Part shown: in pieces, positions 25,087 to 63,480 of the stretch
Layout of the letters: the number at the start of each line of letters is the position of its first letter
How positions within the stretch are numbered: position 1 is the first letter of the stretch
From: a virus
Strand: one strand, 5' to 3'
Length of the DNA: 64,000 nt
IMG/VR virus record: IMGVR_UViG_3300033144_007170
Coordinates: 29,557-93,556 of that record
Position numbers and translations under genes: made by a program
The notes under the pieces: generated by a model
The model's input: the letters and a program-made list of their open reading frames with translations, nothing else
What the model was told of the DNA's origin: nothing
Databases searched by the model: none

Positions 25087-25101
25087 TTGATTTCCTTAAT
25101 G

Positions 25102-26079
25102 TTATAAAGAGTTTTCATATAAAGTTAGACTATTAAAAATTCGATTCTGTCTATTTTTCCCTGTGTGTCTCTTTTTTAAAAAAGAAGAGAAATTCATTTT
25201 TTTAAATATATTAGGCTGATTGCACCAAGCTGCAAGGTCGATATAAAAATCTGAGTATTCATTATCCCAGCAACTAATATCTCTCATTATGTAAGGCAAA
25301 CATTGCCATTTTTTTAAATATTTTATTCTTAAAACAGTTTCAGAAAGGTTCATATTTGGATGGATATAGACAAAAAATTTCAATTGGAACGCTTTTCTCC
25401 AACTAAGAAATTTTAATTTATTTTCTATGACCTTTTTATATTCAATAGAATCGAAAGCGAATGTATAATCCCCTAAATAATTTAATTTATTTAATAGTTC
25501 GCTATTTTCTTTATCTATCAATCTAATATCTAAGCCTTGATTAAATTGACAATTGATTTTTTTTGTAATTAATTCTCGCAGAAGAATTTTGTGATTCGGT
25601 AAAGCTAAAAAATTATTATCTAAAAATTTAACTTTTTTATGCTTTACAATATCGTCTATAGTATTTACTTGTCTTAATTTACCCTCTTTTTTAGGTACAC
25701 AGCAGAAAAAACAATTTCGGATACACCCTCTGGAGATAAAACCATAGGAAATATCACACTCAGGGTATAGGGAGTAATCAGGGGCAAGGTTTTCTATTTT
25801 ATCCGGTAAAGTTTTATAAAGATTTACTCCCGTACCTCCAAAATTAATATTTCTACCCCAAATATATTTAGCATTATCTTTAAAAATAACACTACAAAAT
25901 GCTAAATCTACATTATTTGTTTCTTTTATCTTATGATCAATCTTTTTTTTATTTGGGTAATATGGAATATTAAGTCGAATTAACTTAACCGTAGCCCCTT
26001 TATTTTTATAATATTGTGACAATTTCATTAAAACTATATTGGGAATAACTGAATCGGCGTCTATCAATAAGACCTTCAT
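25102..26079 (-). CDS. radical SAM protein (phage-type)
   Basis: SRGCIRNCFFCCVP CxxxCxxC motif; DADS.IPN..LMKLS, PDYSLYP, DNNFLA, FNQGLD.RL. Confidence 0.88.
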   Translation of the reverse strand: MKVLLIDADSVIPNIVLMKLSQYYKNKGATVKLIRLNIPYYPNKKKIDHKIKETNNVDLAFCSVIFKDNAKYIWGRNINFGGTGVNLYKTLPDKIENLAPDYSLYPECDISYGFISRGCIRNCFFCCVPKKEGKLRQVNTIDDIVKHKKVKFLDNNFLALPNHKILLRELITKKINCQFNQGLDIRLIDKENSELLNKLNYLGDYTFAFDSIEYKKVIENKLKFLSWRKAFQLKFFVYIHPNMNLSETVLRIKYLKKWQCLPYIMRDISCWDNEYSDFYIDLAAWCNQPNIFKKMNFSSFLKKRHTGKNRQNRIFNSLTLYENSL

Positions 26080-26082
26080 TTT

Positions 26083-26835
26083 TTATACCTGTGTTTTTTG
26101 TTTTGCAAGATTCTTCCGTGAGGAAGCACTACCTTCCATATTAATAGAATCGCCTTTTATTTTTCTTCCCTGAGCAAGATACTCAGGAAAATATGCAAAC
26201 TTTTCTTCAAGAGATAAAGCTCTAAGCAGAAAGCCCCAATCCGAGGCTCTTCTAAATGCGGCATCCTCTTCCCATAAATAATTTTTATCCCTATGGACAA
26301 ATGCGATATGGTCTATCCTATTATATAAATGCTCTATCCAGAATTGGGTTGCTTTTGTCCATTCTTCTTTTAGATCTAAAAGTTTCCCTGTTAAATTTCC
26401 TTCTTGGTCGCATTGATGTATTTCCATAAAATGGAAAGCCAAAAAAATATGTGGATTTTCGTCGAGATAGGTGACCATTTTTTCGCAACGGTTTGAAAAA
26501 TATAAATCATCATCTCCGAGATAGCTTAGATATTCAGGGCGTTCTTCTTGGGGGAGCTTCCATATATACCGAAGTCCTTGATTCACCCCAATAGCTACTC
26601 TGTTTGTTTGAGTTCTTTCAGATTCATCTTGGATGGGAATACTATTCACAAGCTTAAAAGCAGCAAATTTATCAGAGTAGCTATTTATAATATCCTTAAC
26701 TTCTTGAATACTCCCATCATCGACAACCACAACCAAAATTTGATCTGCAATAGTTTGATTTGCAATACTATTTAGAGCCTCTTTTATAAATCTTGGCCTA
26801 TTATAACTCGATACAATTACACCCAATTTAACCAT
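26083..26835 (-). CDS. glycosyltransferase family 2
   Basis: VIVSSYNR...S..NQT, VVDDGS, YLGDDD. Confidence 0.88.
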   Translation of the reverse strand: MVKLGVIVSSYNRPRFIKEALNSIANQTIADQILVVVVDDGSIQEVKDIINSYSDKFAAFKLVNSIPIQDESERTQTNRVAIGVNQGLRYIWKLPQEERPEYLSYLGDDDLYFSNRCEKMVTYLDENPHIFLAFHFMEIHQCDQEGNLTGKLLDLKEEWTKATQFWIEHLYNRIDHIAFVHRDKNYLWEEDAAFRRASDWGFLLRALSLEEKFAYFPEYLAQGRKIKGDSINMEGSASSRKNLAKQKTQV

Positions 26836-50090: not shown

Positions 50091-51005
50091 TTATTCACCA
50101 ATTCCGGTAATAACCGTCAAGGCATCTTCTGTTTCTGTAGCGATTGCAATCCGGAGAGTTACGACAAATTTAACTACTCTCTCGGAGATGAGCCGTTCGG
50201 ACTCCATCATAATCTGTCTTTGTACTCCTAAGATCAGATTTTTGGGATCTACAAAAATCATCTTAGTATCTGGAATATGAATATCGTGTTTAATATCTAC
50301 CCCAAATACCATTACAGGCTTATGTCCTTGTAAAGTATTATCCCCATATCCGGTCTGCCTATCTGCCGTTATATCTCTATATTCCGTCTCATTATCTGGA
50401 GAGATATAAAAGTTCATTGCATTACGATTTCTGAGATATTTGGTAGGCATCTCCAAAATAGCTTGTTTAAAAATGTTTTTGCCCACAGCACTATTATCCC
50501 CCGCAATGCTTGCGGTATGGGAAGTAGCCATTTGTAAAGCGCCGTCAAATAGTGCAAGATAGGTATCTTCGCTTTCTGTATCCCCAAGCACCAACAGCTC
50601 TCCTAAGTCCAAAGCAATTCTTTCTGCAATCATAGCCATAAGAGAATCTTCAAAATTATCTTGTTCTATATTATCTTCCAGAACATCATAGGGAATATGT
50701 ACTTCTGCGATTGTCTCTTTCGTAGTAAGTGTGATCTTGCCTGTCGTAGGAGCGGATCTATCGGCAGACCCTAAAGCGGTTCCTGACGCTGGAGCGGCTT
50801 TAAGAATACGAGAACCAAATCCTATATTTTCTATTATTCTCACCGGGGCATTCATTTTTACGAAACGGACGTCATTTATTAAAGTAGGGGCATCCTGAAC
50901 ATCACGCAAGAATGCATCAGCCTGTTCCGGATTAAGATAACCGCCGTCCGATATTAAATCGGCTACCGTGATCATTGCTTTTTCTACAATTTGTCTTTGG
51001 TTCAT
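50091..51005 (-). CDS. major capsid protein (HK97 fold, XkdG/P2-like)
   Basis: GGYLNPEQADAF, IGFGSRIL, DVLEDNIE, GDT, MPTKY, PKNLILG; strong SD AGGAGG. Confidence 0.92.
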   Translation of the reverse strand: MNQRQIVEKAMITVADLISDGGYLNPEQADAFLRDVQDAPTLINDVRFVKMNAPVRIIENIGFGSRILKAAPASGTALGSADRSAPTTGKITLTTKETIAEVHIPYDVLEDNIEQDNFEDSLMAMIAERIALDLGELLVLGDTESEDTYLALFDGALQMATSHTASIAGDNSAVGKNIFKQAILEMPTKYLRNRNAMNFYISPDNETEYRDITADRQTGYGDNTLQGHKPVMVFGVDIKHDIHIPDTKMIFVDPKNLILGVQRQIMMESERLISERVVKFVVTLRIAIATETEDALTVITGIGE

Positions 51006-51049
51006 TTTATCCTCCTAAATATACAGTGAATACGTGTTCTTATTCATAA

Positions 51050-52105
51050 TTACATAGACCCACTAATTCCAGGATGCGTACCTTTTTTAGTGAATAATCC
51101 TGAATATACACTTTCTTTTTTTAGTGTATTTGGATTATTGGGATCGTCTATAACGGTTTTAGATACTACAGTACCGGACATTTTTTCCAATTTCTCAGTT
51201 ACTTCTTTTACAGAAGTCTTTAAATCGTCGATCTCTTTCTCTTTAGCAAGACGCTCGTCTTCTGCCTTCTTAGTAGCAGCTTGAGTCTCTGCACTTTTCG
51301 CATCCTCTTCCGCTTTCTGTGTTATTGCTTTCGTAACAACATCAGCGATAATTCCAGTCAGTTCCTCTTTGCTTTCTAATTCAAACATAGTACCCTCCTT
51401 GTTTGCTTTTTTAATAGGTATTTGTTTCTGTAACATTTCTATGAATTTAGCGGCTCGTTCTCCCACAGGAGGAGTACCGTTAGATTTTGCTTCTGAAAAG
51501 ATAGTTTCACAAAAGGATCTGAAATTATCTATGGCTAAAAGAACCGTTTTTTTCATATCCGATTCTTCCATATCCGATTCTTTCATATTACTCTGGGACA
51601 TAGAACCCGATATAAGATCCATCATTGCGTACATCTCCTCCCAGACGGTCCAAGTGTCCACTTCTTTAATATCTTCTTTTAATACTATTGTCTTAGGGGG
51701 ATCATTCAGATTTTTTTCATCTTTTTCTTTTTTATCTGCAAGTAAATCATAAGTAATCGCATACACATGATTTTCAGGGTCTATAGCAACAATTGATTTG
51801 GTATCAAGAGCACAGGCAGATTTATCGACCTGTTCATAAATAAGATAATTGCCGTCTTCCTTTATTGTATCCTTTCTAAAATCTTTCCCTACTAAAGTTT
51901 CAAGATCAGCTTTACTATCTTTTTCAATTCTTATTGCCTGAACTACTTTATTCATCTTCTCCCCCTTATTCCCTTTCACTACCCGAAAGGGAGTATTATT
52001 TGCACCATGCCTTACCAAAGATACAAAAGTAACTTCCGGCTCTTTTAAAAAATCTACCGTAGTTTCTTTTGGTACGGTTATAACGTCCTTACTTATTTTT
52101 TTCAT
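51050..52105 (-). CDS. head scaffold-like protein with N-terminal protease-type strand
   Basis: EVTFVSLVRHGAN at N-terminus; C-terminal coiled coil; precedes capsid. Confidence 0.65.
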   Translation of the reverse strand: MKKISKDVITVPKETTVDFLKEPEVTFVSLVRHGANNTPFRVVKGNKGEKMNKVVQAIRIEKDSKADLETLVGKDFRKDTIKEDGNYLIYEQVDKSACALDTKSIVAIDPENHVYAITYDLLADKKEKDEKNLNDPPKTIVLKEDIKEVDTWTVWEEMYAMMDLISGSMSQSNMKESDMEESDMKKTVLLAIDNFRSFCETIFSEAKSNGTPPVGERAAKFIEMLQKQIPIKKANKEGTMFELESKEELTGIIADVVTKAITQKAEEDAKSAETQAATKKAEDERLAKEKEIDDLKTSVKEVTEKLEKMSGTVVSKTVIDDPNNPNTLKKESVYSGLFTKKGTHPGISGSM

Positions 52106-52109
52106 AGTA

Positions 52110-52745
52110 TTACTCAACAAAATATCTATGGGAATGTTCCATTGCTTTTTCCGTAGCCGAAGTTAATAAGATTGTGTGTTGATGGTTATGGTCAAAAGAA
52201 GTATATCCGGAAACTACACCGCCTTTGGAGTCCAATCGGATAACATAGGTATGTTCGTGGGGTTCTACATCTTTCTCCGATGATTGGCCTTCTTCTGTAT
52301 TACCGGTGGCTAAGGTAACCACATCCACCACTACAGAAACAGGCTGTTTTATGCTGGTGCCATAAAAAGAAAAAGCATTTAACTCTCCAGATTTAACATT
52401 TTTCCAGACATCGTCCGGAACCCACACCCCCATAACCCAAGCCCCTTCTGTATATAGAGGATCATCGGGAGTTCGGACTATATAACTCTCGACTACAACA
52501 GCTCCGCTTTTTTCGAGATTATGCCCTACATCAATATTATCAAGATAATTATTTTTCAGGAAAGTATGGGCGGCGTATTCTACATCTTCTGGGGTCATTG
52601 CTTCCCAATCAGTATCTACCATATTAGGAGCATAAACCTCCCCAAATACTAATTGTTTGTCCTCAACTAAATGTTTAAATACTACTTTAAGAAGTTCTTC
52701 TGAAGTTTCGGATTTTGTTGAAGATTTTTTTATTTGGAAGGCCAT
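52110..52745 (-). CDS. XkdF-like prohead serine protease
   Basis: LVFGEVYAP..VD, AAH.F, D..H, VVESY, GAWVMG, W..VKSGELNAFS; His-rich C-terminus. Confidence 0.88.
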   Translation of the reverse strand: MAFQIKKSSTKSETSEELLKVVFKHLVEDKQLVFGEVYAPNMVDTDWEAMTPEDVEYAAHTFLKNNYLDNIDVGHNLEKSGAVVVESYIVRTPDDPLYTEGAWVMGVWVPDDVWKNVKSGELNAFSFYGTSIKQPVSVVVDVVTLATGNTEEGQSSEKDVEPHEHTYVIRLDSKGGVVSGYTSFDHNHQHTILLTSATEKAMEHSHRYFVE

Positions 52746-52814: not shown

Positions 52815-53042
52815 CTAAGGTGTACTATCTGTACTAAAAAATCGAACTAAATCGTCGGAATATACTTTTCTTGCGGGGGATATAGGAAGTTTGCCTTGTT
52901 TTTGATAACGTCTTACTGTATGTCGATGCACTCCTAAAATTTGAGACACTTCTGTAAGATTATAGGTGCCTTTCTTGGGCAGTCCAACAGAAGGAAGTAT
53001 TGTATTTTCAAAATAGTTAGTATTATTTTTGGAATCTGACAT
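52815..53042 (-). CDS. HTH DNA-binding protein (MerR/excisionase-like)
   Basis: YNLTEVSQILGVHRHTVRRY..QGKL. Confidence 0.75.
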   Translation of the reverse strand: MSDSKNNTNYFENTILPSVGLPKKGTYNLTEVSQILGVHRHTVRRYQKQGKLPISPARKVYSDDLVRFFSTDSTP

Positions 53043-53043
53043 T

Positions 53044-53259
53044 TTATCGAGTTATTGCTCTATTTGTTTTTGGGGGGAGGGGTTCTAATTCAAAAGAATA
53101 AAACTCTACCTCCTTTAATTTTTTAGTTCTGCATTTTATTATTTGAGCAGAACCGGGCACATTAGATATAGACAATACCAGTACCCATTCTTTTTGAAGA
53201 ATATGCTGTACTGTTTTTCCTGGTATAATTTTTTCGATCTTCATAATTAAGATTACCAC
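53044..53259 (-). CDS. hypothetical protein
   Basis: 71-aa SH3-like small ORF. Confidence 0.5.
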   Translation of the reverse strand: MVILIMKIEKIIPGKTVQHILQKEWVLVLSISNVPGSAQIIKCRTKKLKEVEFYSFELEPLPPKTNRAITR

Positions 53260-54926
53260 ATAGGCTTGTCAAGCTTCTTTTGTTTTTTGGGCACCTTGTG
53301 CCTTCCTTGCCGTATCCTTTTTTCTTCTGCGCTCTCGATACGTTTTTCTGGTACTATATGCTCCAAAATACATTTAGTCATAATATCAATTACCATTTCT
53401 GGAGTAATTCCGGTAAGACAATAAACTTCGGGTTTTACACAATCTGTCCATTCTTTGTCTGTTCTTCCCCTACACCCGCCACATTCGAGATCTTCGATTC
53501 TAATTGGGTATTCTATAGCATCCGATGCCGGAGAGAAAGGATGCACGCATCCGTATATTACACAAGCTGGAGTACCTACCGCCTTTGCTATATGGGCACA
53601 ACCCGAATCTATTCCTAAAAACAAACAGCATTCTTTAATCAATGCGGCGGTTTGTTTTATAGGAAGCCCTCTGCAATCTTTGCCTACCCCGGTATATTGA
53701 GTTTGGGGGTTCCCTATCTCTAAGATCTCATAGCCTTTCTTTTTGTAATGAGAAGCAACTTTAACAAATCTATCCAACTCCCACTCTTTGCTTTTCCAGG
53801 CCCGCCCCGTATGGAATACAATATGTCTCTGGTTCGGTTTTAAAAAGCGTCGGATAGGATTTACATCGTCTTCGGTTAGGTATACTTGTAATTTAGCTTT
53901 CTTTAAAGTAACATTGCATTGATTGGCCATAGTTATTATGGCATTTTTTTCCATATCAACTTCATATCTTGGAGTTAAAACAATATCATATTTTTTTAGC
54001 TTTGGCTCTCTTCTGACAATCTCATTTATACAAGGGTTCCCTGTGAGGATCCCAGGGCAATCTGTTTCATATACTATATAGGAATTGGGGTATTTATTTT
54101 TTAATGCGAACAATATGGGGGTTGTTAATAAAACATCTCCCATAGCTCCCTTTCTTCTAAAAAGAATAGTGGGTTTGTCTGCTTCTATTTTAGATTCAAT
54201 CGGGCGCTTTCCTGTTACCCATTTACTAAACATTCTGTGCCTACTGGTGTTGTTTTGTTCTGGGGCAGTATGATCTAATTGTTTTTTAGACTTACTGCCG
54301 TAGTGTTTAATAGGAAGCTTCACAGTTTTGAGCTTTAGCCCCAATTCTTTAACCCTATAAGATAAATCTGCGTCTTCCCCATAAGCTGGATTAAACTGCA
54401 TATCAAACCCCTTTAATTCCTGAAACAATTTCCACTTTCCGAATAAGCACCAACCTTCTACGTAGCTCCAATCCTCCTCAATTTTGCTACTGCCTACATG
54501 ATTAACTGTTTCTTCTGCGTAATCGGGAGCTGCTTTATGGCACATAGTTCCTACTAACCCCACATTCTCTTCTTTGCTTGCCTGCATCAAAATAGGTAGC
54601 CAATTGTATCCTTTGATTTTACAATCGTTATTAAGGAAGAGGATATACTCGCACTCAGCTAATTTCAGAGCTTGGTTATTGCCTCCGGAAAATCCTCTGT
54701 TCCTCCGGTTTCTTACTATTAAATCCCGCTCCCCAGTCAATACTTCGTCTAAATATTTTAAAGTCCCGTCTTCCGATCCTTGATCGACTACAATTAAATC
54801 ATACTTATTTCTGTCTGTAAATTTTTTTATGGAATCTATACATATTTTAGTGTAGTGTACCTGATTCCATGCAAGTATTATAATAGCTACTTTATTTTTT
54901 TTCTGCTTCATCGTCATTATATCCAT
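53253..54926 (-). CDS. bifunctional glycosyltransferase GT2 + GT9 (heptosyltransferase-like)
   Basis: N-term VDQGSEDGT, GFSGGNN, FLNND, EDADL; C-term GAMGDVLLTTP, KEW, DSG.AH.A.AVG.P, CxxC..C..C. Confidence 0.88.
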   Translation of the reverse strand: MDIMTMKQKKNKVAIIILAWNQVHYTKICIDSIKKFTDRNKYDLIVVDQGSEDGTLKYLDEVLTGERDLIVRNRRNRGFSGGNNQALKLAECEYILFLNNDCKIKGYNWLPILMQASKEENVGLVGTMCHKAAPDYAEETVNHVGSSKIEEDWSYVEGWCLFGKWKLFQELKGFDMQFNPAYGEDADLSYRVKELGLKLKTVKLPIKHYGSKSKKQLDHTAPEQNNTSRHRMFSKWVTGKRPIESKIEADKPTILFRRKGAMGDVLLTTPILFALKNKYPNSYIVYETDCPGILTGNPCINEIVRREPKLKKYDIVLTPRYEVDMEKNAIITMANQCNVTLKKAKLQVYLTEDDVNPIRRFLKPNQRHIVFHTGRAWKSKEWELDRFVKVASHYKKKGYEILEIGNPQTQYTGVGKDCRGLPIKQTAALIKECCLFLGIDSGCAHIAKAVGTPACVIYGCVHPFSPASDAIEYPIRIEDLECGGCRGRTDKEWTDCVKPEVYCLTGITPEMVIDIMTKCILEHIVPEKRIESAEEKRIRQGRHKVPKKQKKLDKPMW

Positions 54927-54928
54927 AT

Positions 54929-55615
54929 TTAATAGTTCCTACGGCTGATGTTTACTTCCGTGATCCTCAAACTTTTATATTCTTTGCATACTTTATATAT
55001 TACATCCGCAACTTCTGTCGGGTCACTAAGTTTTTCTCTATTTTCTCTATCTAAGGTCATACCTGTTTTCATTGCTCCGGGATAAATATCAACGACCCTT
55101 ATATTATGTCTTGTAACATCGAATTGAAGAGCTTTAGAGAATCCTGCTAATCCATGCTTACTTGCGCAATATGCGGTTTCTCCGTCTCCGCCGGCTTTCC
55201 CCGCAATAGAATTAATATTAAGTATTAATCCGGATCTTTTTCTTTGGAACAATTTGAATATCCTTGTTGCCAAAAGCATGGGAGCTATTAAATTCGTATT
55301 AATTACTTCTTTAACTGTAGCGGAAGATAAATATAAAATTTCCCTATTTACATACATTGCTGCATTATTGATTAATATATCAATATCCCTTGTCTTTGCA
55401 ATGTCCGTCAGTAGAGCTATTGTGGAATCTACTTGGATATCCCCTTGTATGGTATCGCATACAATTTCATACGCTCCAGTAAGCTTCTTCTGCAAATCCA
55501 CCAAAGCCATAAGATTTCGGCCATGTAATATCAAATTGTATCCGTTTTTTGCAAATATACAAGACAGTGCTCTACCGAGTCCACCGCTTGCGCCTGTAAT
55601 AAGTACTGTGCTCAT
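54929..55615 (-). CDS. short-chain dehydrogenase/reductase (SDR)
   Basis: TGASGGLG, LINNA, YCASK, PG...T. Confidence 0.92.
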   Translation of the reverse strand: MSTVLITGASGGLGRALSCIFAKNGYNLILHGRNLMALVDLQKKLTGAYEIVCDTIQGDIQVDSTIALLTDIAKTRDIDILINNAAMYVNREILYLSSATVKEVINTNLIAPMLLATRIFKLFQRKRSGLILNINSIAGKAGGDGETAYCASKHGLAGFSKALQFDVTRHNIRVVDIYPGAMKTGMTLDRENREKLSDPTEVADVIYKVCKEYKSLRITEVNISRRNY

Positions 55616-55623
55616 TTGTGCTC

Positions 55624-56106
55624 CTAAAAAAAAGGCAGCCCCTCCCGCTTCAAGCAAATAATTGAAGGTGTTGCCATTAAATATGAATCAATCATGGCCT
55701 TTTCAGTCTCCACCATATTCCGGGGGAAGTACCCAAAAGTATTTTTAAGTAGTCCTACCAGACCTTCTGCGTTCAATGGCCTATGCGTAGGGCCGTGTGT
55801 GGGATAATCAGAATTCCCAACCAACATTACGGGTAAGTTTTGCTCATCTATGTCGATTTTAATTTGCTCAAAAGGACGTTCTATTAAAAAAGGAGTGAGC
55901 GTATAAACAACTGGTCTTAATCCTTCGATTGCCATTCCCGCAGCGATGCTTATCATACTCTGTTCGCAAAGACCGATATTAAAAAATCTATCTGGAAATT
56001 TCTCTACGAACTCATCCATTTCTTGGTATACATCCCCGATCAGGAGGACTATGCGCTCGTCTTTTTCAGCTAATCGTACAATGGTTTTTCCAAACTGACG
56101 CCTCAT
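55624..56106 (-). CDS. transketolase, pyrimidine-binding subunit (lacks C-terminal domain)
   Basis: FPDRFFNIGLCEQ, AAGMAIEG..P, ERPFEQIK.D, GPTH. Confidence 0.9.
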   Translation of the reverse strand: MRRQFGKTIVRLAEKDERIVLLIGDVYQEMDEFVEKFPDRFFNIGLCEQSMISIAAGMAIEGLRPVVYTLTPFLIERPFEQIKIDIDEQNLPVMLVGNSDYPTHGPTHRPLNAEGLVGLLKNTFGYFPRNMVETEKAMIDSYLMATPSIICLKREGLPFF

Positions 56107-56843
56107 TGTAATTCCTCCATTGCCTGTTTCAGTTCTTCGGGATTCGGAAATTTTGCATGCCATTCCGGGACGTTTTCCATAAAACTAACACCCTTTCCCT
56201 TTACTGTGCGTGCGATAATAAATCGGGGCATTTTTTCAATACTCCTTCTCACGCTATCGACAATATCGGCGCAATCGTGTCCATCTGCGGTCGAGGCATT
56301 CCAGCCAATTCTTGTTGCTATTCCACCCAAGTCGCCTATCGGAAGTATGTTGCTCAGGAATCCAGATCCCTGTAGTCTATTCCAATCCACGATCACAACG
56401 AGATTATCTAATTGATGATGTGTCGCTATAAGAAATGATTCCCATGTTGTTCCTTCTTGGCACTCGCCATCTCCCATAAGTACATAAACTTTCCCTGGTT
56501 TCTTAGCGATCTTTTTTGCCATCGCAATTCCTATTGCGGTAGGTAATCCGTGCCCCAGGCTTCCAGTAGTGCTGTGTATTCCATTATGCGGGTCTCGCTT
56601 TGGGTGTCCCTCTATAATAGGATTGTATCCCTTTTCCCGCAGAATAACATACAAAGGCCAACAACTATGCCCCTTACTGAGTATAAATTTATCGTCGTCA
56701 GTTAAAACATGGTCGTATAAAGCTATTAATATTTCCACCGCAGAGAAACTCCCTCCGAAATGGTATCCCCCATGTTTTAGAGATAATGTTATTGTATCTC
56801 TTCTTATTTGTTTTGATCTTGAATTCATTTTTTCCTTATACAT
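56103..56843 (-). CDS. transketolase, N-terminal ThDP-binding subunit
   Basis: H.GGS.S, ILSKGH, TGSLGHGL, GDGE..EG..WE, D.N, DGHD, TVKGKG, WH. Confidence 0.93.
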   Translation of the reverse strand: MYKEKMNSRSKQIRRDTITLSLKHGGYHFGGSFSAVEILIALYDHVLTDDDKFILSKGHSCWPLYVILREKGYNPIIEGHPKRDPHNGIHSTTGSLGHGLPTAIGIAMAKKIAKKPGKVYVLMGDGECQEGTTWESFLIATHHQLDNLVVIVDWNRLQGSGFLSNILPIGDLGGIATRIGWNASTADGHDCADIVDSVRRSIEKMPRFIIARTVKGKGVSFMENVPEWHAKFPNPEELKQAMEELQ

Positions 56844-56945
56844 AAAAGATTTGTGTAGTTGTTTTTTTCCGGGGTATATATTTTAAGTAATTCTGAAATG
56901 TTAACCGGTTTTATTTTTTTCTCTTTTTTGTGCATATTTTCACCT

Positions 56946-57758
56946 TTAACCCCCAAGCGGATAGGCTATTTCTATATCCGGCCTGTCTGTTTTGTTTGGA
57001 AAATCGAGTCCGATTACAGGAAAGTTTACATCTGTTTTTTTTACTCCGGCAACTAAATCTTTTCTAACAAAACTTAGCTCGATCAATGGGGGGAAGCGAT
57101 ATCCTTCACTCCCTATTTCGGATAAAGAATTATTTGCATGTATATGATAAATATAAAAATGTTTATTTAGCTTTTTTAAAGCTCGGTAATACAATTCAAA
57201 TATTTTGTCGTTGATTTTGTCGTAAACAGATTTGTAAAATTTACTAAAATAGGGAGTTAATATAAAGTGAGGACCTGCAAATCCTGGTCTTTTCATTTGC
57301 GAGAAGGTATCAATGCTAACTATATGGAATTCAACTAATAATTGATTGAATTGCGTAAGCACTTCATCTGGCGTAGATAACAAAGCCTCCCACTCATCCC
57401 ATTCTATATCCATTTTTAATAGTTTTGAACTGCTCACAATATCACCCAGCATTATACTTTGCAGGCTTTCGTGGTTCTGACCAACTCCAAGCTTGAAAAA
57501 GGTAAATCTTTTGTGGTCGCAAGGCAAAGAATCTATTGTAGGGTCAAACAACCTTACGTGTGAATTCGGAAATCTGTTTACAAATTCAAGCTCAAAGCCT
57601 ACATCGTTTTCTACCCCAAAACTATAGACAGTGTTTGTTTTTTCGCATAGTTCTTTCAGTGCCACATATCCACCATCAGATTCATTGCCAATTCTGACTT
57701 TGGTTAGATTACAGTCAAAAACTTCGATTTCTTTTAAAAATTTTTGTATGTTTTTCAT
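56946..57758 (-). CDS. FkbM-like / Methyltransf_22 methyltransferase
   Basis: R.G...DGGY, YSFGV..D..FE, FDPT, LKMDIE..EW, QL.VEFH, H.H.NN, P..IE.SF. Confidence 0.82.
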   Translation of the reverse strand: MKNIQKFLKEIEVFDCNLTKVRIGNESDGGYVALKELCEKTNTVYSFGVENDVGFELEFVNRFPNSHVRLFDPTIDSLPCDHKRFTFFKLGVGQNHESLQSIMLGDIVSSSKLLKMDIEWDEWEALLSTPDEVLTQFNQLLVEFHIVSIDTFSQMKRPGFAGPHFILTPYFSKFYKSVYDKINDKIFELYYRALKKLNKHFYIYHIHANNSLSEIGSEGYRFPPLIELSFVRKDLVAGVKKTDVNFPVIGLDFPNKTDRPDIEIAYPLGG

Positions 57759-57766
57759 ATGTCTCT

Positions 57767-58834
57767 CTATGGCGATAATATTGCTCGACCAAGGATTGTC
57801 CCAGAACGAAGCAAATCCATAGCCCTATTGATTTCAATGAGATCGTAAAAAACTACATCTTCCTTAAACCCAATAAGTTTTGAGGGATCAAATATTCCTT
57901 GGCGGTACAACTCCAAGTATTTCGGAATGTCTGTTGTTGGGTTGGTTTGTCCCCCTTCACTATCTATTAGGGTTTTGCCTTTGAAATGCTGATAGGCATT
58001 CTTAAAAACAATATCTTGGTCTGGTTTTGGCTGTCCGACCATTATCGTTTTACCTCCAGCCTTCGTCAGTATATGGGCCATCTCGATGCAATTAATGTTT
58101 CCCGTGGTGTCTACACAGACATCGGCGCCATCGCAGGTACCTATAATTTTTTTCACTTCTGAATATGTGGTATTTCTACCCATATTGCAGTTATATATTA
58201 CGTGAGACGCCCCGCATTCTTTTGCGAGAAACAGTTTATTGTCAGCAATGTCTATCGCTATAATAGGGTTACCCGACACCATCGAAGCGCCTTGAATTAC
58301 ACTCAAACCAACACCGCCACAACCTATTACAACTATAGATTGTCCTATTTTCAATTTTGCCTCATTGTTAATTAAGCCCAACCCTGTAGTAGTACAGCAT
58401 CCCATTAAAGCAGCTATTTCATAGGGAATGTCGTCTTCTATTTTAGTTAGTCTATTTTCAGAAATTACTGCATAATTATTAAATGTTGTTACAAGCCCTC
58501 CTCCAACTAAGGATCCATCTTTTCTTGTATATTTAGGGAACTCGGATTCAATACCCGCTCCAGGTCTCCAGTGTAAGACTACACGATCCCCAGGTTTTAC
58601 ATGTCGTACAGAATTTCCTACATCAACAACTTCTCCTCCGCCCTCATGCCCCAGCAAAAAAGGCAAGAATTCCTTCCTTGTCCCAATTCCCTCCATATGA
58701 TAAAGCTGTGCTCCGCAGATTCCGCTACAATGTATTCGTACAAGCACTTGTCCACACGTAAGAGAAGGAATCTCTAACTGCTCTACCTCAAGAGGTTTCC
58801 CGAATTCCACTACAACTGCTGCATTTGTTTTCAT
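57767..58834 (-). CDS. Zn-dependent alcohol dehydrogenase (MDR)
   Basis: GICG, LGHEGGG.V..VG, GCC..TG.G, GCGGVG. Confidence 0.92.
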   Translation of the reverse strand: MKTNAAVVVEFGKPLEVEQLEIPSLTCGQVLVRIHCSGICGAQLYHMEGIGTRKEFLPFLLGHEGGGEVVDVGNSVRHVKPGDRVVLHWRPGAGIESEFPKYTRKDGSLVGGGLVTTFNNYAVISENRLTKIEDDIPYEIAALMGCCTTTGLGLINNEAKLKIGQSIVVIGCGGVGLSVIQGASMVSGNPIIAIDIADNKLFLAKECGASHVIYNCNMGRNTTYSEVKKIIGTCDGADVCVDTTGNINCIEMAHILTKAGGKTIMVGQPKPDQDIVFKNAYQHFKGKTLIDSEGGQTNPTTDIPKYLELYRQGIFDPSKLIGFKEDVVFYDLIEINRAMDLLRSGTILGRAILSP

Positions 58835-59571
58835 AAAGTTGTTACCCCCTGTTCCTGAATTACCTGCATTGCACATTTCTGTGCAAAATCTATAGCACTT
58901 TCAATATTCCCCTTTTTAACGTACTCAACGACAAGTCCCGCCAAAAAAGTATCGCCTGCGCCCGCAATACTTTTAACCTCAACTTCCCCCTCTACTGGAT
59001 ACCTTTTATTCCGATACCTACAACCCATAGGTCCGAGTGTAACTATTAGGCTACTTTTAATAAACTCGCTTTGTCTACTTAATACATGGTGTGTCCTTTC
59101 AAACTCAAGTTTATTAATCTTTATAAAATCAATTCCGAAACACCACTCGGAGAGCACTTTATTTGTTTGCATAAATGTTGTACACTCGGCTTCGCTTGCT
59201 ATAAAAGCTATATCTTCCTCATCTAAAAAACCCTTTCCGTAATCAGAAAGGACAATAGCATCATAGCCTTTAAGCCTTTTTATATCCCGTGTGTATCTGC
59301 ATCCCACAACATCATTCTCGTCCAGACGCATAAGCATTTGACCCGTCTTATCATCAATATATCTTGTCTTAACGATATTATCCACGCTTTCTATGCTATC
59401 ACAAGGATATCCAAGTGCTTTGAGGTTGTCGATAACATTGCCCGCCATGCCCCTGTTGGTCGTAGTCCTTAGGGGCAAAAACACAGGCACGGGGGCCTCT
59501 GGGCAAATTCTTTCGCAAGAACCATAAACAAAAACATCCGTGCATGTATCCCCAATTACCAGAAGTTTCAT
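58831..59571 (-). CDS. HldE/RfaE-type heptose-7-phosphate kinase domain (PfkB family)
   Basis: VIGD...D..VYG..ERICPEAPVPV, KTR, SDYGKG, VTLG..G, GAGDTF. Confidence 0.85.
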   Translation of the reverse strand: MKLLVIGDTCTDVFVYGSCERICPEAPVPVFLPLRTTTNRGMAGNVIDNLKALGYPCDSIESVDNIVKTRYIDDKTGQMLMRLDENDVVGCRYTRDIKRLKGYDAIVLSDYGKGFLDEEDIAFIASEAECTTFMQTNKVLSEWCFGIDFIKINKLEFERTHHVLSRQSEFIKSSLIVTLGPMGCRYRNKRYPVEGEVEVKSIAGAGDTFLAGLVVEYVKKGNIESAIDFAQKCAMQVIQEQGVTTL

Positions 59572-59574
59572 ATT

Positions 59575-60195
59575 CTACTCTTTCTCTTTAAGACAAAAAA
59601 TGTTCCAGCTTCCACCGCCCAACTTGTTCATTTTTGCAGCCATTTCTAAATCTTGAACCAAACCACATAATACAAACTGTTTATGCCACCATTCCCACGG
59701 TTTAATTGTGAGACGTCCGGGCTTTCCGTGAGGCAGCTTTTTCAATACTTCTGTCGTCACTATCCCAAACACAAGATGCCCTTTTGTCAGTCGCCTCATA
59801 GAATCGATAGCTTTTTTGACATCCTCTTCTACCAAATAAGCCAGTACATTCCATGCAAATACAACATCGTATTGGCCGTTTATGTGAGACAAATCCCGAA
59901 GATCCCCTTGTACTATATCGCTTACTATTGCCTTATCAACTGCATATTGAGACAATTCTACACCTTTCACGTCCTCGCCCAGCTCACGAAGGAATTTTAC
60001 AAACCATCCAACTCCGCATCCAACATCAAGAAAAGTTTTACCGTGAAATCCAGCAGACAGTACCGAGACAACGCCACGAACTACGCCGAGTCCTTTTGCG
60101 TGAACATTTATTCTATTTCCTCCCTTTTCTCCGGTTACTCCTTCAAAAAATTCCTCATCAAAATGTGAGACTTTATACTCTGGCTTCTTTGTCAT
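59575..60195 (-). CDS. class I SAM-dependent methyltransferase
   Basis: FLDVGCGVG, GVELS, GD...YDVV, KP.EWW..F. Confidence 0.85.
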   Translation of the reverse strand: MTKKPEYKVSHFDEEFFEGVTGEKGGNRINVHAKGLGVVRGVVSVLSAGFHGKTFLDVGCGVGWFVKFLRELGEDVKGVELSQYAVDKAIVSDIVQGDLRDLSHINGQYDVVFAWNVLAYLVEEDVKKAIDSMRRLTKGHLVFGIVTTEVLKKLPHGKPGRLTIKPWEWWHKQFVLCGLVQDLEMAAKMNKLGGGSWNIFCLKEKE

Positions 60196-60223
60196 TTTTT
60201 TATTCCTTTTTAGTTTCAAAACA

Positions 60224-60772
60224 TTAATAATATTTTTCATCCGCATCAAATATTGTGTGTGCAAGTTCCGCAGGAAAGTCTAATCCTGTCCATTCTTTTA
60301 GACCACACAAAGTTCTTTTTGGATTCATAAATAAACAGCTTGTAAATACCATATAAAATCTTCCTGTAAACCCCGTAAACATCTGCCCTATAAACATCCA
60401 TTCCGCAACCAGATTAGTCCGAGCCTCCAAGAGTACTTTAGCGTGCCCTACATTAAGCTTAGATCGTGTATTACACAGCCAATCCCGAAGGGTTATTATA
60501 TAGCATGGCCTATATCCTGCTTTTTGAAACTTAGCACCCATATCTAATATGTCCGGCCTGCGGGTTGGATAATGGGGGATACTACGCCTAAAAACTAAAT
60601 GCTCTGGAGTCTCGTCTAAAATAGATTCTATACTAATACCGTCTTCAAATATAAATCGGTCTAATCTCTGTTTATGCTCATAGTCCCCAACACATCCCGC
60701 AGAACAAAAGAGACGGGTCACGACTCTTGTTCCTGAGCTTTCGGGGCCTATTACTATAAATACTTTTTTAAT
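60224..60772 (-). CDS. sulfotransferase-like P-loop protein (ATT start)
   Basis: frame extends upstream to IKKVFIVIGPESSGTR (PAPS-binding loop), RD...S 3'-PB motif; SD AAGGAGG 6 nt before ATT. Confidence 0.65.
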   Translation of the reverse strand: MKKVFIVIGPESSGTRVVTRLFCSAGCVGDYEHKQRLDRFIFEDGISIESILDETPEHLVFRRSIPHYPTRRPDILDMGAKFQKAGYRPCYIITLRDWLCNTRSKLNVGHAKVLLEARTNLVAEWMFIGQMFTGFTGRFYMVFTSCLFMNPKRTLCGLKEWTGLDFPAELAHTIFDADEKYY

Positions 60773-60783
60773 GCGTAACCTCC

Positions 60784-61032
60784 TTATATTTTGGGTTTAA
60801 TTTCTTCGATAGCACAAATAAAGAAACTTTCATTATTATCCTTTACGGCATCATAAATTTGCTTTTCGGCCACACCCCAAAAAAACCTACCAAGAAATCC
60901 ACTGATTCGAGTTCTCTCCAGTTCATCTGGTATTGCTTTCAAATACTCATCCTCTGTCATTGTAAAAATACTTTCTGGATAAGGATTCTCAGGCCACCAA
61001 TCCGGTCTTTTTTCTTTATCTTTCATATACAA
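60784..61032 (-). CDS. hypothetical phage protein
   Basis: WWPENPYPESIF motif. Confidence 0.55.
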   Translation of the reverse strand: MYMKDKEKRPDWWPENPYPESIFTMTEDEYLKAIPDELERTRISGFLGRFFWGVAEKQIYDAVKDNNESFFICAIEEIKPKI

Positions 61033-61061
61033 CCTTTAATAACTCCTATGGAATAAGAAAG

Positions 61062-61349
61062 CTATATTTTTTCAGGTAAATTTGCGGGGCCTTTTTTACC
61101 TTCGGCAATCTCCCCCCATTCAAAATTTGGAACTTCCATCACGGGAGTTTTGCTTATAACTTCTAACCTACTGACATCTAACCAATGACCTCCAACGAGC
61201 TTTCCACTTTTATCCAGACCCGTCGGTCTTACATCTGCCTGGATACATCCGTATAGATCAAAAGACATAGATATCACAATTCCCTTAAAGTCAGAAACTT
61301 TGTCTTTTACTTTAAATCCCAATAAACCCAAATGTTTTTTAATAAGCAT
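61062..61349 (-). CDS. phage hypothetical protein, paralogue of 2446-2676
   Basis: LG..VKDKVS.FKGI...LYGC....P...KGP. Confidence 0.65.
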   Translation of the reverse strand: MLIKKHLGLLGFKVKDKVSDFKGIVISMSFDLYGCIQADVRPTGLDKSGKLVGGHWLDVSRLEVISKTPVMEVPNFEWGEIAEGKKGPANLPEKI

Positions 61350-61371
61350 TTTTACCCCCGTAGTATAGTAT

Positions 61372-61647
61372 TTAATTATCCCCGCAATTAAGCTTCGGCA
61401 ATCCTATATCCGATAAGATTTTTGAAATAAGACACCAACAGCCTTCCTTTCGTTTAAAATTTTTAAACTCCCCTTTTGTAAATATTTCTTGATTGTAGCT
61501 TTCCGCGGGAATATCAGAAATTTCATATTGGTAATTACCGTATTCTGGACGTTTGTCATTAGTCCCATCATTCCATATTTTTAATTCTCCGATCCGTTTT
61601 GATTTAGGGTCTCCAAAGGGATGGAAATCAATATGTAATTTTAGCAT
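61372..61647 (-). CDS. hypothetical phage protein
   Basis: I.NDGT...GNY...F.R....W.LI motif. Confidence 0.6.
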   Translation of the reverse strand: MLKLHIDFHPFGDPKSKRIGELKIWNDGTNDKRPEYGNYQYEISDIPAESYNQEIFTKGEFKNFKRKEGCWCLISKILSDIGLPKLNCGDN

Positions 61648-61832
61648 TTTTGTCTCTTTTTATAGGGTATAGCATCCGCTATACTCATTAAGGATCGGGC
61701 TTTAATAATCATTTTTTATCCCCGCAATTCTTACAAATATACTGGAAACCCCCTGCACTTTCCTCAATTAATTTCAAAGTCTTTCCGCATTTAGGGCATC
61801 TATGAAATGCCCATATTCCCTTTTCCGCCATA

Positions 61833-62597
61833 TTAATTCCTTTCGTATATAACTTTAGCGTTTTTATAATAAAACTCTCCGGGCTCTATTCCCTGAAATT
61901 TCCCAGTTCTACTGCAATAAAAATTACAAGTATCCGCTCTATGGCAGGGCAGTATTATTTTAGGGTGATATTGATGAATACTACGGACATAATTTAATAT
62001 ATTTGCATCAAACCCTAATTCTTTCATGGTCAGGCTGAGTCCTGCATCACAGCTACATTCTCGATATTTTACTAAACCCAAATCTTCTCTTAAAATACCC
62101 CCTAAATAAAATAACCAAGAATTTGGAAATTGAGCTCCTGTATATGTCTTATAATCATTTACAGATCTTGTATTCCATCCTCTAAGTAAATGTTGAGTTG
62201 TTCGATCATAATTTTTATGCATACACGGGGCCAGTTGCAGATTTCGCACTTCCGTATATACGACTTCTTTATGCTTAATATGCTTTACTATTTCTTCATA
62301 TGCGAATTCCTGTAAAGGAACTACTCCGACATGATGAATGATTACAAACTCTGTATCGGAAGACATCATATCTAAACAATGGACTTTAGCGTCTAAAAAT
62401 CCTTCATTCTTCTCTAATCGAAGGTATTTAGCTTTAGGAAGAAACTTTCGGATAATGGGTTCGGGGTCTATATCAGAATGATCATCAATTATGCACACCT
62501 CAAAAGGCTCAGAGGTCTTTTGGCGAGAAATTGCATATAATGTGTTCGGCAGATATTTATTTTTGTTATACGTAGCCAGAAAAACTGCTGTCTTCAT
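61833..62597 (-). CDS. glycosyltransferase family 2 (atypical)
   Basis: TYNK..L...L..I..Q, FEV.IIDD.S, N.G, HQYH; DxD position reads HHVG. Confidence 0.75.
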   Translation of the reverse strand: MKTAVFLATYNKNKYLPNTLYAISRQKTSEPFEVCIIDDHSDIDPEPIIRKFLPKAKYLRLEKNEGFLDAKVHCLDMMSSDTEFVIIHHVGVVPLQEFAYEEIVKHIKHKEVVYTEVRNLQLAPCMHKNYDRTTQHLLRGWNTRSVNDYKTYTGAQFPNSWLFYLGGILREDLGLVKYRECSCDAGLSLTMKELGFDANILNYVRSIHQYHPKIILPCHRADTCNFYCSRTGKFQGIEPGEFYYKNAKVIYERN

Positions 62598-62796
62598 TCC
62601 AATCCAATCAACAAATTATTTGCGATTATATTAATAAATTATTCTATAACTATAGCGACTATATATTTTATATTGATGGTATATTTGGAATCAAGTTTAT
62701 CAATAAAGCAGACCCAATTTTCGGATTCTTTCTCTTCTATCTGCTTACCCGTGAAAGTCAAACTCGGATTCCCCTCTAAAAGTATTGTTATTTTTT

Positions 62797-63480
62797 TCAT
62801 AGTTCTCCTTCTATTTCAATTATACATATTTGTCTACCGTTATAAAATAAAGTTTCTTTGCTGTCTAAAACAGAAAAATCGGGATCTATAATATTAGGCA
62901 GGTAGTCTATTAATATATCCCTTATATATTTGCCGGTATACGCCAAAAAACATAATCTCTCATCTCCCTCTATTCTTTTAGTCCTATAAAATTTTGGAGT
63001 ATTATAGTAAGTCAGGGATAAGATTATCTTATGGCTAACTTTTATGTACCTTTCCAGAAATATTCGCAATCTTTGGTCTATATTCGGGAAAATATCATTA
63101 GCTATTACTACATCGTATTCTGAAGGTTTATGTTTATACCAATCATCTCCTACTATAAAATTGGAATCTATGTTATTTCTTCGAGGGATGTCTTTATATT
63201 GATCCCCGTATAACGGGTCGATTAATTCATATTTTTGTGTATTTTTAATTAATAAGCGGGTCAGGGAACTGTATCCGCCCCCCACATCTAACATTTTCAC
63301 GTTAGATGTATTCTGTAAATATTCCCCATACATCAAATTATATACTGCTCTTTTTTGCGGGGAGTCCGCTAACCACATATGAGATTTGGATAAAGAATCA
63401 GGAAATACTGAAGTCTCCCGCAATACTTCTAAAATAGGCTTTTCGTATTTATCTACTAAATCTTGAGTTAAAAGAATCAT
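62797..63480 (-). CDS. SAM-dependent methyltransferase-like protein
   Basis: MLDVGGG, YELID, YDVVIAND.FP. Confidence 0.65.
   Translation of the reverse strand: MILLTQDLVDKYEKPILEVLRETSVFPDSLSKSHMWLADSPQKRAVYNLMYGEYLQNTSNVKMLDVGGGYSSLTRLLIKNTQKYELIDPLYGDQYKDIPRRNNIDSNFIVGDDWYKHKPSEYDVVIANDIFPNIDQRLRIFLERYIKVSHKIILSLTYYNTPKFYRTKRIEGDERLCFLAYTGKYIRDILIDYLPNIIDPDFSVLDSKETLFYNGRQICIIEIEGEL

Follow-up and report, generated by a model that had tools for sequence, protein, structure and literature searches.

A phage gene cluster beside head genes probably encodes a soluble sugar-tailoring and transfer system with a distinct transketolase-like enzyme pair

We describe a gene cluster in the virus record IMGVR_UViG_3300033144_007170, which is 93,556 bp long. 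The stretch analysed, referred to as the window, is the final 64 kb of this record, and coordinates are window positions unless stated otherwise. The cluster occupies positions 53253–63480 on the minus strand and is transcribed from 63480 to 53253. Judging by gene content, it probably encodes a soluble system for sugar tailoring and transfer that is co-expressed with the phage head genes. The cluster genes, in the order of transcription, and the head genes that follow are listed below, with the main evidence in brackets.

62797–63480, minus: class I S-adenosylmethionine (SAM)-methyltransferase-fold protein, 227 amino acids (aa), first gene (structure and feature search only)
62639–62800, minus: open reading frame (ORF) of 53 aa, function unassigned, overlapping the upstream gene by 4 nucleotides (nt) (ORF list, no family match)
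61833–62597, minus: glycosyltransferase of family GT2, 254 aa, soluble (PF00535, E 7.6e-14; hydrophobic segment absent)
60784–61647, minus: three small ORFs of 91, 95, and 82 aa, function unassigned (ORF list, no Pfam match)
60224–60772, minus: minimal sulfotransferase-fold protein, 182 aa, ATT start (fold, P-loop, relatives)
59575–60264, minus: SAM-dependent methyltransferase, 229 aa (Methyltransf_11, 1.8e-13; phrog_27380, 2.2e-14)
58831–59571, minus: short PfkB kinase of a viral type resembling HldA/RfaE domain I, 246 aa (PfkB, 6e-16; phrog_8133, 3.5e-73)
57767–58876, minus: Zn-dependent medium-chain dehydrogenase/reductase (MDR) of the alcohol dehydrogenase type (Zn-ADH), 369 aa as called (ADH_N, ADH_zinc_N; phrog_2640, 2.3e-72)
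56946–57758, minus: FkbM-type methyltransferase, 270 aa (via homologs)
56103–56843, minus: transketolase-like thiamine diphosphate (ThDP) enzyme, PP-domain subunit, 246 aa (Transketolase_N, 1.7e-24)
55624–56163, minus: transketolase-like Pyr-domain subunit, 179 aa as called (Transket_pyr, 3.7e-19)
54929–55657, minus: classical short-chain dehydrogenase/reductase (SDR), 242 aa (adh_short, 3.9e-43)
53253–54926, minus: GT2-GT9 fusion glycosyltransferase, 557 aa, soluble (PF00535, 2.5e-18; PF01075, 3.8e-12)
52815–53259, minus: two small ORFs between the cluster and the protease, one of 71 aa and unassigned, one of 75 aa and of the HTH_17/MerR type
52110–52745, minus: XkdF-type prohead protease (Peptidase_S78_2, 3.5e-22)
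50091–52745, minus: head genes, comprising the protease, a 356-aa scaffold-like protein, and an HK97-type major capsid protein (MCP) (Phage_capsid, 1.4e-7)

Profile searches and folds place the genes listed by an earlier note on this DNA at the positions it gave, with the start of the sulfotransferase gene corrected. Genes within the cluster overlap or are spaced by 1–185 bp. The distance from the end of the cluster to the XkdF-type protease, put at about 500 bp in the earlier note, is 507 bp, and two small ORFs lie in this gap. No terminator-like site above chance is present between the cluster and the head genes (promoter and terminator scans perform no better than on shuffled sequence). The scaffold-like protein matches phrog_3017 weakly. 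For the product of the first gene, Pfam, NCBIfam, and PHROG all give no match; its structure aligns in the Atlas with Methyltransf_11/25 clusters at TM scores of 0.57–0.62, and its feature score is 0.94. The 270-aa product of 56946–57758 has no direct Pfam match itself, and the FkbM-type call follows from its 174 homologs, several of which carry PF13383 or PF05050. None of the cluster proteins contains a transmembrane segment, and no member of the flippase, polymerase, or polyprenyl-phosphate transferase families is found in the cluster. The view that the phage encodes multi-enzyme tailoring and transfer, not a lone transferase, is thus borne out by the gene content, in which methylation and sulfation enzymes are present.

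The best PDB match of the PP subunit of the transketolase-like pair is a split transketolase (6yak, 2.4e-49). Residues H28, H59, H80, GSLGH98, D125, N155, and H229 of the PP subunit are kept in 110–116 of 116 homologs; they comprise the ThDP/Mg motif and donor-site residues and correspond to yeast H30, H69, H103, D157, N187, and H263. The Pyr subunit, which more likely starts at Met20 than at the called start, lacks the C-terminal (third) domain, and 107 of its 113 homologs are 150–199 aa long. In yeast transketolase, R359, S386, H469, R528, and D477 bind the substrate phosphate and the acceptor C2-OH. In the Pyr subunit, H469 is replaced by S or A, D477 by H, L, or Q, and R528 by C or S, and the S386 loop is shortened, the equivalences coming from one HMMER alignment to 6yaj and from yeast numbering. 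These replacements hold across 101 members of the Pyr family. R359, the activating glutamate (E418), and H481 are retained.

Since the acceptor and sugar-phosphate residues and the C-terminal domain are lost family-wide, a non-canonical acceptor is indicated. By these sequence features the pair is a distinct subfamily and not a normal transketolase. It probably still performs a transketolase-type two-carbon transfer, onto a different acceptor, and synthesis of sedoheptulose-7-phosphate by the pair is unlikely. The earlier note had linked a transketolase making sedoheptulose-7-phosphate to an HldE-type kinase; this logic is not supported, because the acceptor residues are replaced in about 100 homologs and the C-terminal domain is absent. 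Its other suggestion, that a ThDP enzyme and a reductase build a branched or higher-carbon sugar, fits the observed enzymes better than the sedoheptulose-7-phosphate route, and the chemistry in it stays a prediction. Two apparent parallels were set aside: the split transketolase of Salmonella houtenae, which is located in a catabolic operon, and transketolase matches in the 'phages' collection, which are mostly bacterial contigs or unannotated fragments.

The kinase and the Zn-ADH resemble genes of cyanophage lipopolysaccharide ('LPS') islands. By far the best model for the kinase is TIGR02198 (rfaE_dom_I; 1.3e-28), at 100 bits against a cut-off of 345 bits, and the GAGD motif is present. The kinase is 35–41% identical to the kinases of the cyanophage islands, with which it shares the 246-aa short form. 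The Zn-ADH is 42% identical to the Zn-ADH of S-SM2 (SSM2_197 region).

Of the four heptose-pathway activities, the genome is predicted to hold a kinase-type gene only. Over the whole 93.6-kb genome, PF13580 (GmhA/SIS) is silent, as are hidden Markov models (HMMs) of the small GmhA/SIS families found in other cassettes; PF01467, PF00483, and HMMs of viral small nucleotidyltransferases are silent; and TIGR00213 and PF13419 (GmhB/HAD phosphatase) are silent. As a positive control for the GmhB negative, the same whole-genome search recovers the PfkB kinase. A motif scan of the whole genome for nucleotidyltransferases finds no HxGH, and its two STT matches, in frames of the tail region, are attributable to chance. 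The small unassigned ORFs were considered as cryptic GmhA or nucleotidyltransferase genes and rejected, as the HMMs of the viral small forms match no frame in the genome. GmhA, GmhB, and a nucleotidyltransferase, noted before as missing from the window, are therefore missing from the whole 93,556-bp genome, flanks included. A complete heptose pathway is not supported, as the other three activities are absent genome-wide, and the phage must draw on host precursors.

The sulfotransferase-fold gene is longer than standard ORF calling suggests. With ATG, GTG, and TTG as start codons, the gene at 60224–60772 starts at a GTG and encodes 165 aa, losing 17 residues and the P-loop. Relatives of the 165-aa call have about 18 extra N-terminal residues including a GPESSGT loop, and the loop is also in frame upstream here. 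In the region 60700–60819 (minus strand), the TAA stop of the previous gene is followed by GGAGG, 6 nt, and then ATT. Because of the in-frame GPESSGT loop upstream and the spacing of GGAGG, the predicted start is the ATT at 60772 and the predicted product has 182 aa. The protein itself has no Pfam match, so there is no family-level match above a curated cut-off. It has 238 relatives, and Sulfotransfer_3 matches in 11 of 60, with a best E-value of 4.3e-5. The AlphaFold2 (AF2) model of the 182-aa protein, made from a 70-sequence alignment, has a pLDDT of 96.2. Nearly all PDB matches listed by Foldseek for this model are sulfotransferases that use 3'-phosphoadenosine-5'-phosphosulfate (PAPS) (E to 8e-5, TMq 0.45–0.60), and the top matches are TPST2, the olefin-synthase sulfotransferase, heparan sulfate 3-OST, and Stf0. 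The N-terminal P-loop that forms the 5'-phosphosulfate-binding (5'-PSB) motif is present as GPESSGT after the first strand.

The cluster contains three glycosyltransferase domains (GT2, GT2, and GT9). The GT9 domain of the fusion protein scores 46.5 bits with PF01075 against a cut-off of 22 and falls below every NCBIfam equivalog cut-off. Its AF2 model has a pLDDT of 90 and matches 3tov, 1psw, 4rb4, and 2h1h in Foldseek at a probability of 1.00, the best structural matches being 3tov, WaaF, TibC, and WaaC. The same GT2-GT9 fusion is found in about 40 proteins, all metagenomic, of which the closest is 64% identical.

Two more GT2 genes lie elsewhere in the genome. One encodes a 280-aa protein with a weak Glyco_transf_7C match (L133:1976-2818, genome 1976-2818, minus strand) and lies about 2.4 kb upstream of the cluster, counted across the contig end. 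Beside it are genes for an orotate-phosphoribosyltransferase-like protein (L133:2746-3354), a DUF5662 protein, and a truncated Dam-like methylase. The glycan gene set, as read from these neighbours, may extend past the window. The other GT2 gene (26083–26835) belongs to a second module near the DNA polymerase (23974–26835), separate from the late cluster, together with genes for a weakly radical-SAM-like protein (25102–26079) and a 370-aa protein without an NCBIfam match.

The region is part of a complete phage genome without recognisable lysogeny genes. The record has a direct terminal repeat of 114 bp, its CheckV completeness is 100%, and its GC content is even along the record (0.32–0.41). 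Nearly all genes in the ORF list are on the minus strand. The genome also codes for a UvsX-like recombinase, two helicases, and a DnaB-type helicase, and neither a tyrosine integrase nor a serine recombinase/resolvase is detectable in the whole genome. The capsid protein is 42–46% identical to annotated MCPs of Stenotrophomonas, Bacillus, Vibrio, and Rhizobium siphoviruses. The portal gene (17998–19812) is some 30 kb away from these head genes (protease and capsid), amid replication genes. Because of the terminal repeat, the 100% completeness, and the phage genes on either side, the sequence is not a host fragment; the terminal repeat, the uniform GC content, and the flanking phage genes likewise rule out a prophage edge or a chimeric assembly. 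Near-identity to a host LPS/O-antigen locus, one of the findings that the earlier note said would overturn its proposal, is not seen either: bacterial genes are at most about 59% identical. The phage cluster is therefore not a recent copy of a host locus.

By megablast, the 14-kb region has no match among 50,697 phage records, a capsid-seeded search of IMG/VR for relatives finds nothing, and an FkbM-seeded scan of genome contigs finds nothing. A metagenome scan returns relatives at about 50% identity only and no sister phage. An 89,869-bp contig that bears both the closest FkbM homolog (80%) and the closest GT2-GT9 homolog (64%) is, by these sequence matches, evidently a sister phage.

To follow the cassette in other viruses, we searched IMG/VR with the PP subunit and obtained 49 viral loci. 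Of these, 45 also contain the Pyr subunit, 41 the Zn-ADH, 34 the SDR, 22 the FkbM-type methylase, and 21 the kinase. The cassette proteins are 40–80% identical across the loci. Beyond the cassette, the only protein of the phage that is shared is the protease, which is matched in two loci. Given this near-absence of other shared proteins, the cassette is a mobile unit. The ADH, the pair, and the SDR often occur without a kinase or nucleotidyltransferase, and the tailoring unit is therefore able to use host-supplied substrates. In about 16 loci, the cassette lies in islands with a small GmhA-like gene, a nucleotidyltransferase gene, and several epimerase/dehydratase genes; the 'LPS' island of cyanophage S-SM2 has this composition too.

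In about 17 of the 49 loci, a count based on BLAST families seeded from few annotated examples, the cassette lies beside recognised head genes, which are of two head-module types without detectable capsid similarity. The adjacency to capsid genes that the earlier note proposed looking for in related contigs thus recurs. In the first type (loci L020 and L027), the order is large terminase, DNA methylase, portal, MuF-like protein, cassette, XkdF-ending protein, scaffold-like protein, and MCP-like protein. The MCP of L020/L027 is 24% identical to that of the phage studied (E 2e-19), and by sequence and gene order these loci represent the same head-module type and the same insertion site. They differ in that the portal gene is just upstream of the cassette and protease, whereas the phage studied has no portal gene there. 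The protein directly after the cassette in L020, a phage only distantly related to the one studied, has 522 aa (L020:12826-14394); its final ~120 residues are an XkdF-type prohead protease, and its first ~370 residues match no family. In the second type (the L012/L014 group), the order is portal, protease, scaffold, MCP, Maf/MptE-like protein, cassette, and small connector-sized ORFs, which we assume to be head-tail connectors and of which one has a match to a PHROG of unknown function only. The MCP of this group shows no similarity to the MCP of the phage studied. The L012/L014 cassette is interspersed with genes for GIY-YIG endonucleases, methylases, and a sulfotransferase-like protein; in L014 (L014:12290-18386), three GIY-YIG/NUMOD3 homing-endonuclease genes lie in the cassette, and one of them splits the transketolase-like subunit genes. 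Comparison of these loci indicates that the cassette is kept or re-inserted among head genes in phages without detectable capsid similarity.

The cassettes of L020 and L027 both carry genes for a TauE/SafE-type anion permease and an adenosine-5'-phosphosulfate (APS) kinase, which in L020 lie between the two transketolase-like subunits (L020:10614-12347). The APS kinase of L020 suggests a phage-boosted supply of PAPS for sulfation. Predicted sulfation in the phage studied is supported by this APS kinase and by the sulfotransferase-like genes of the L014 group.

The transketolase-like pair is also common in bacteria, among them SAR11, Chlorobium, Anaerolineales, and other genomes. Its bacterial neighbours include genes for a long fused nucleotidyltransferase-kinase, SIS proteins, APH-like kinases, methylases, radical SAM proteins, and aminotransferases. 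The HldE partners at L094:6239-7765, L078:5809-7335, and L087:3873-5306 are 'swapped', with a cytidylyltransferase-like domain at the N-terminus and PfkB at the C-terminus; the domain order of E. coli HldE is the reverse.

A scheme for the cluster can be proposed, in which we infer the order of the reactions, the substrate, and the acceptor from the families, folds, and catalytic residues observed here. The starting point would be a host sugar precursor, probably ADP-heptose or another nucleoside diphosphate (NDP)-heptose, or a heptose phosphate; the kinase and the GT9 domain tie the chemistry to heptose. The Zn-ADH would oxidise a hydroxyl to a carbonyl, the transketolase-like ThDP enzyme would add a two-carbon unit of the glycolaldehyde type to the carbonyl, as a chain extension or a branch, and the SDR would reduce the new ketone. 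The FkbM-type and other methyltransferases would O-methylate the product, the short HldA-like kinase would phosphorylate a heptose-type intermediate, and the minimal sulfotransferase would add sulfate from host PAPS. The GT2 and GT2-GT9 proteins would then assemble a short glycan, and its acceptor would be a late product of infection, most likely a virion protein such as the capsid protein or another component of head or tail. This would give the particle a methylated and possibly sulfated coat.

Virion glycosylation is the leading reading of the target, ahead of modification of the host envelope or of the DNA, and we adopt it tentatively, as a reading that stops a little short of being probable. 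It leads because all the proteins appear soluble, an integrase is absent, and hydroxymethyl-pyrimidine enzymes are absent. Precedent exists in mycobacteriophages, which glycosylate capsid and tail-tube proteins with their own transferases, according to the statements in PMC12619734 and PMC11256854 that cite Freeman et al. 2023. Several points weigh against it. The late-operon position shows timing, not target. The GT9 model is about equally near LPS heptosyltransferases and the protein heptosyltransferase TibC, superposing on TibC no worse than on WaaC or WaaF, and so does not discriminate between targets, and GT9 enzymes act mostly on LPS cores. A scan of the structural proteins finds no distinctive Ser/Thr-rich acceptor stretch. 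By the genome-wide profile searches, the kinase stands alone, with GmhA, GmhB, and a nucleotidyltransferase all absent. Finally, bacterial loci for surface glycans contain homologous cassettes too, as do cyanophage-type islands that are remote from head genes.

The last point bears on remodelling of the host envelope, which is what the 'LPS genes' of cyanomyoviruses are generally assumed to do. While infecting, the phage would alter a glycan of the host surface, in the LPS core or elsewhere, for instance to exclude superinfecting phages or to keep progeny from sticking to debris. GT9 is the LPS heptosyltransferase family, with WaaF and WaaC among the best structural matches; the kinase and the Zn-ADH are 38–42% identical to genes of the S-SM2 and P-SSM2 LPS islands; transketolase-like pairs lie in glycan loci of SAR11, Chlorobium, and Anaerolineales beside HldE-like, SIS, epimerase, and methylase genes; and partial transketolases are known in SAR11 hypervariable regions (10.1101/672428). 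However, lysogenic conversion is unlikely in a genome without an integrase or resolvase, the cluster lacks a flippase, a polymerase, a polyprenyl-phosphate transferase, and any membrane protein, and the cassette is nested in head operons of two types without detectable capsid similarity. We consider envelope remodelling rather unlikely. Hypermodification of the phage DNA, with the tailored sugar attached to a modified base, is improbable. Phage GT-B enzymes can put heptose or other sugars on 5-hydroxymethylcytosine, and the clusters concerned can adjoin structural genes (10.1101/2023.12.21.572611); the second module, with its GT2 and radical-SAM-like genes beside the polymerase, would also suit this explanation. 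Nevertheless, a genome-wide search finds no thymidylate-synthase-family hydroxymethylase, no TET/JBP dioxygenase, and no C5 cytosine methylase, and the GT9 domain is closest in fold to heptosyltransferases for LPS and protein, not to DNA transferases like T4 beta-GT.

Two further explanations dispense with a glycosylated macromolecule. The product might be a soluble methylated or sulfated sugar or polyol that serves as an osmolyte, signal, or inhibitor, as the anion permease and APS kinase of the L020/L027 cassettes and the lack of a phage-encoded nucleotidyltransferase would allow; the three glycosyltransferase domains in the same run, and the Maf-like or other transferase genes carried by cassettes of the head-operon type, make this improbable. 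Alternatively, the transketolase and the PfkB kinase could be auxiliary metabolic genes that boost the pentose-phosphate pathway and glycolysis of the host. In Hurwitz et al. 2013, viral tkt was assigned to the pentose-phosphate pathway and the P-SSM2 kinase AAX44687 was listed as 'pfk' (PMC4053976), and AAX44687 is the annotated feature under a 38%-identity match to the cluster kinase. The chance that this applies here is close to negligible: the pair has lost D477, the residues for sugar-phosphate binding, and the C-terminal domain, the kinase is nearest to heptose-7-phosphate kinase models and not to phosphofructokinase models, and both genes always lie amid methylases, reductases, and glycosyltransferases.

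Returning to virion glycosylation, a more far-reaching form of it can be put as follows. The pair, the MDR, the SDR, and the FkbM-type methylase would constitute an undescribed ThDP-dependent two-carbon extension or branching of a heptose-type sugar, which phages of at least two head-module types, with undetectably related capsids, would combine with methylases, sulfotransferases, and transferases of their own to produce a capsid coat. We regard this full proposal as possible, though on the doubtful side. Phage virion glycosylation is already known, as are phage 'LPS' islands with heptose genes. In the searchable literature, we find no description of the transketolase-like subfamily with MDR, SDR, and FkbM partners, of the minimal sulfotransferase, or of the whole set nested in head operons, and nothing relevant on transketolase in O-antigen or nucleotide-sugar branching or on phage sulfotransferases acting on capsid glycans.

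If the proposal is true, virion glycosylation would extend beyond actinobacteriophages to abundant uncultured phages of water and soil that make rare sugars themselves, and particles with a methylated, sulfated coat could differ in stability, in adsorption, and in how they are grazed and recognised by immune systems. The transketolase-like subfamily, of which about 100 members are seen, would be a new carbohydrate enzyme forming C–C bonds, of interest for biocatalysis. Viral 'tkt' and 'pfk' reads in ocean viromes could not be taken at face value as pentose-phosphate and glycolysis genes, many of them being glycan-pathway genes. A minimal family of about 180 aa would join the known sulfotransferases, and feature-based look-alike clusters suggest that it is common in viral contigs.

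The cluster can be compared with several known systems. The 'LPS' islands of T4-like cyanophages (P-SSM2, S-SM2, S-CAM1, and P-TIM68) have a homologous short kinase (35–41%) and Zn-ADH (42%), and in S-SM2 a Zn-ADH, a transketolase-central-region protein, a 270-aa hypothetical protein, and the kinase are neighbours. In contrast to the cluster described here, which abuts the head genes of a siphovirus-type head module, these islands have their own small GmhA-like, nucleotidyltransferase, and epimerase genes and occupy hypervariable parts of myovirus genomes. Production of ADP-heptose by viral heptose enzymes has been reported (Tang et al. 2024, as related in PMC11461863). The split transketolase of Carboxydothermus (6yak/6yaj) shares with the phage pair the two-subunit PP and Pyr arrangement, the ThDP motif GDG...N, the activating glutamate, and the donor-site histidines. 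Unlike split and canonical transketolases, the phage pair is always found in glycan clusters and not in pentose-phosphate contexts. In the YerE/YerF (yersiniose), AviB1/B2, and AlmDI/DII systems, a ThDP carboligase adds a two-carbon unit to a keto-sugar nucleotide and a ketoreductase then acts. YerE is acetolactate-synthase-like and AviB/AlmD are E1-like, whereas the phage enzyme is transketolase-like and would transfer glycolaldehyde, not acetyl; the likeness is one of logic only. The GT9 domain has the GT-B fold of the heptosyltransferases WaaC, WaaF, WaaQ, and TibC/Aah and scores above the PF01075 cut-off, but it follows a GT2 domain in one fused polypeptide, and the family of this fusion is known from metagenomes only.

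Virion glycosylation itself is best compared with that of mycobacteriophages, which are known to carry a few transferases that use host sugar nucleotides. In Che8, Corndog, and Myrna, as in the cluster, the glycosyltransferases are phage-encoded and soluble and in some phages are accompanied by a methyltransferase; they act on capsid or tail-tube subunits, and the glycans shield the particle from antibodies, as far as the accounts of Freeman et al. 2023 in PMC12619734 and PMC11256854 go. Unlike these systems, the cluster adds at least six predicted tailoring enzymes (the ThDP enzyme, MDR, SDR, kinase, three methylases, and sulfotransferase). Chloroviruses and mimiviruses glycosylate their capsids autonomously. 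If virion proteins are indeed the target, the cluster would be a bacteriophage counterpart of these viral systems, with most of the virion glycan pathway encoded by the phage itself.

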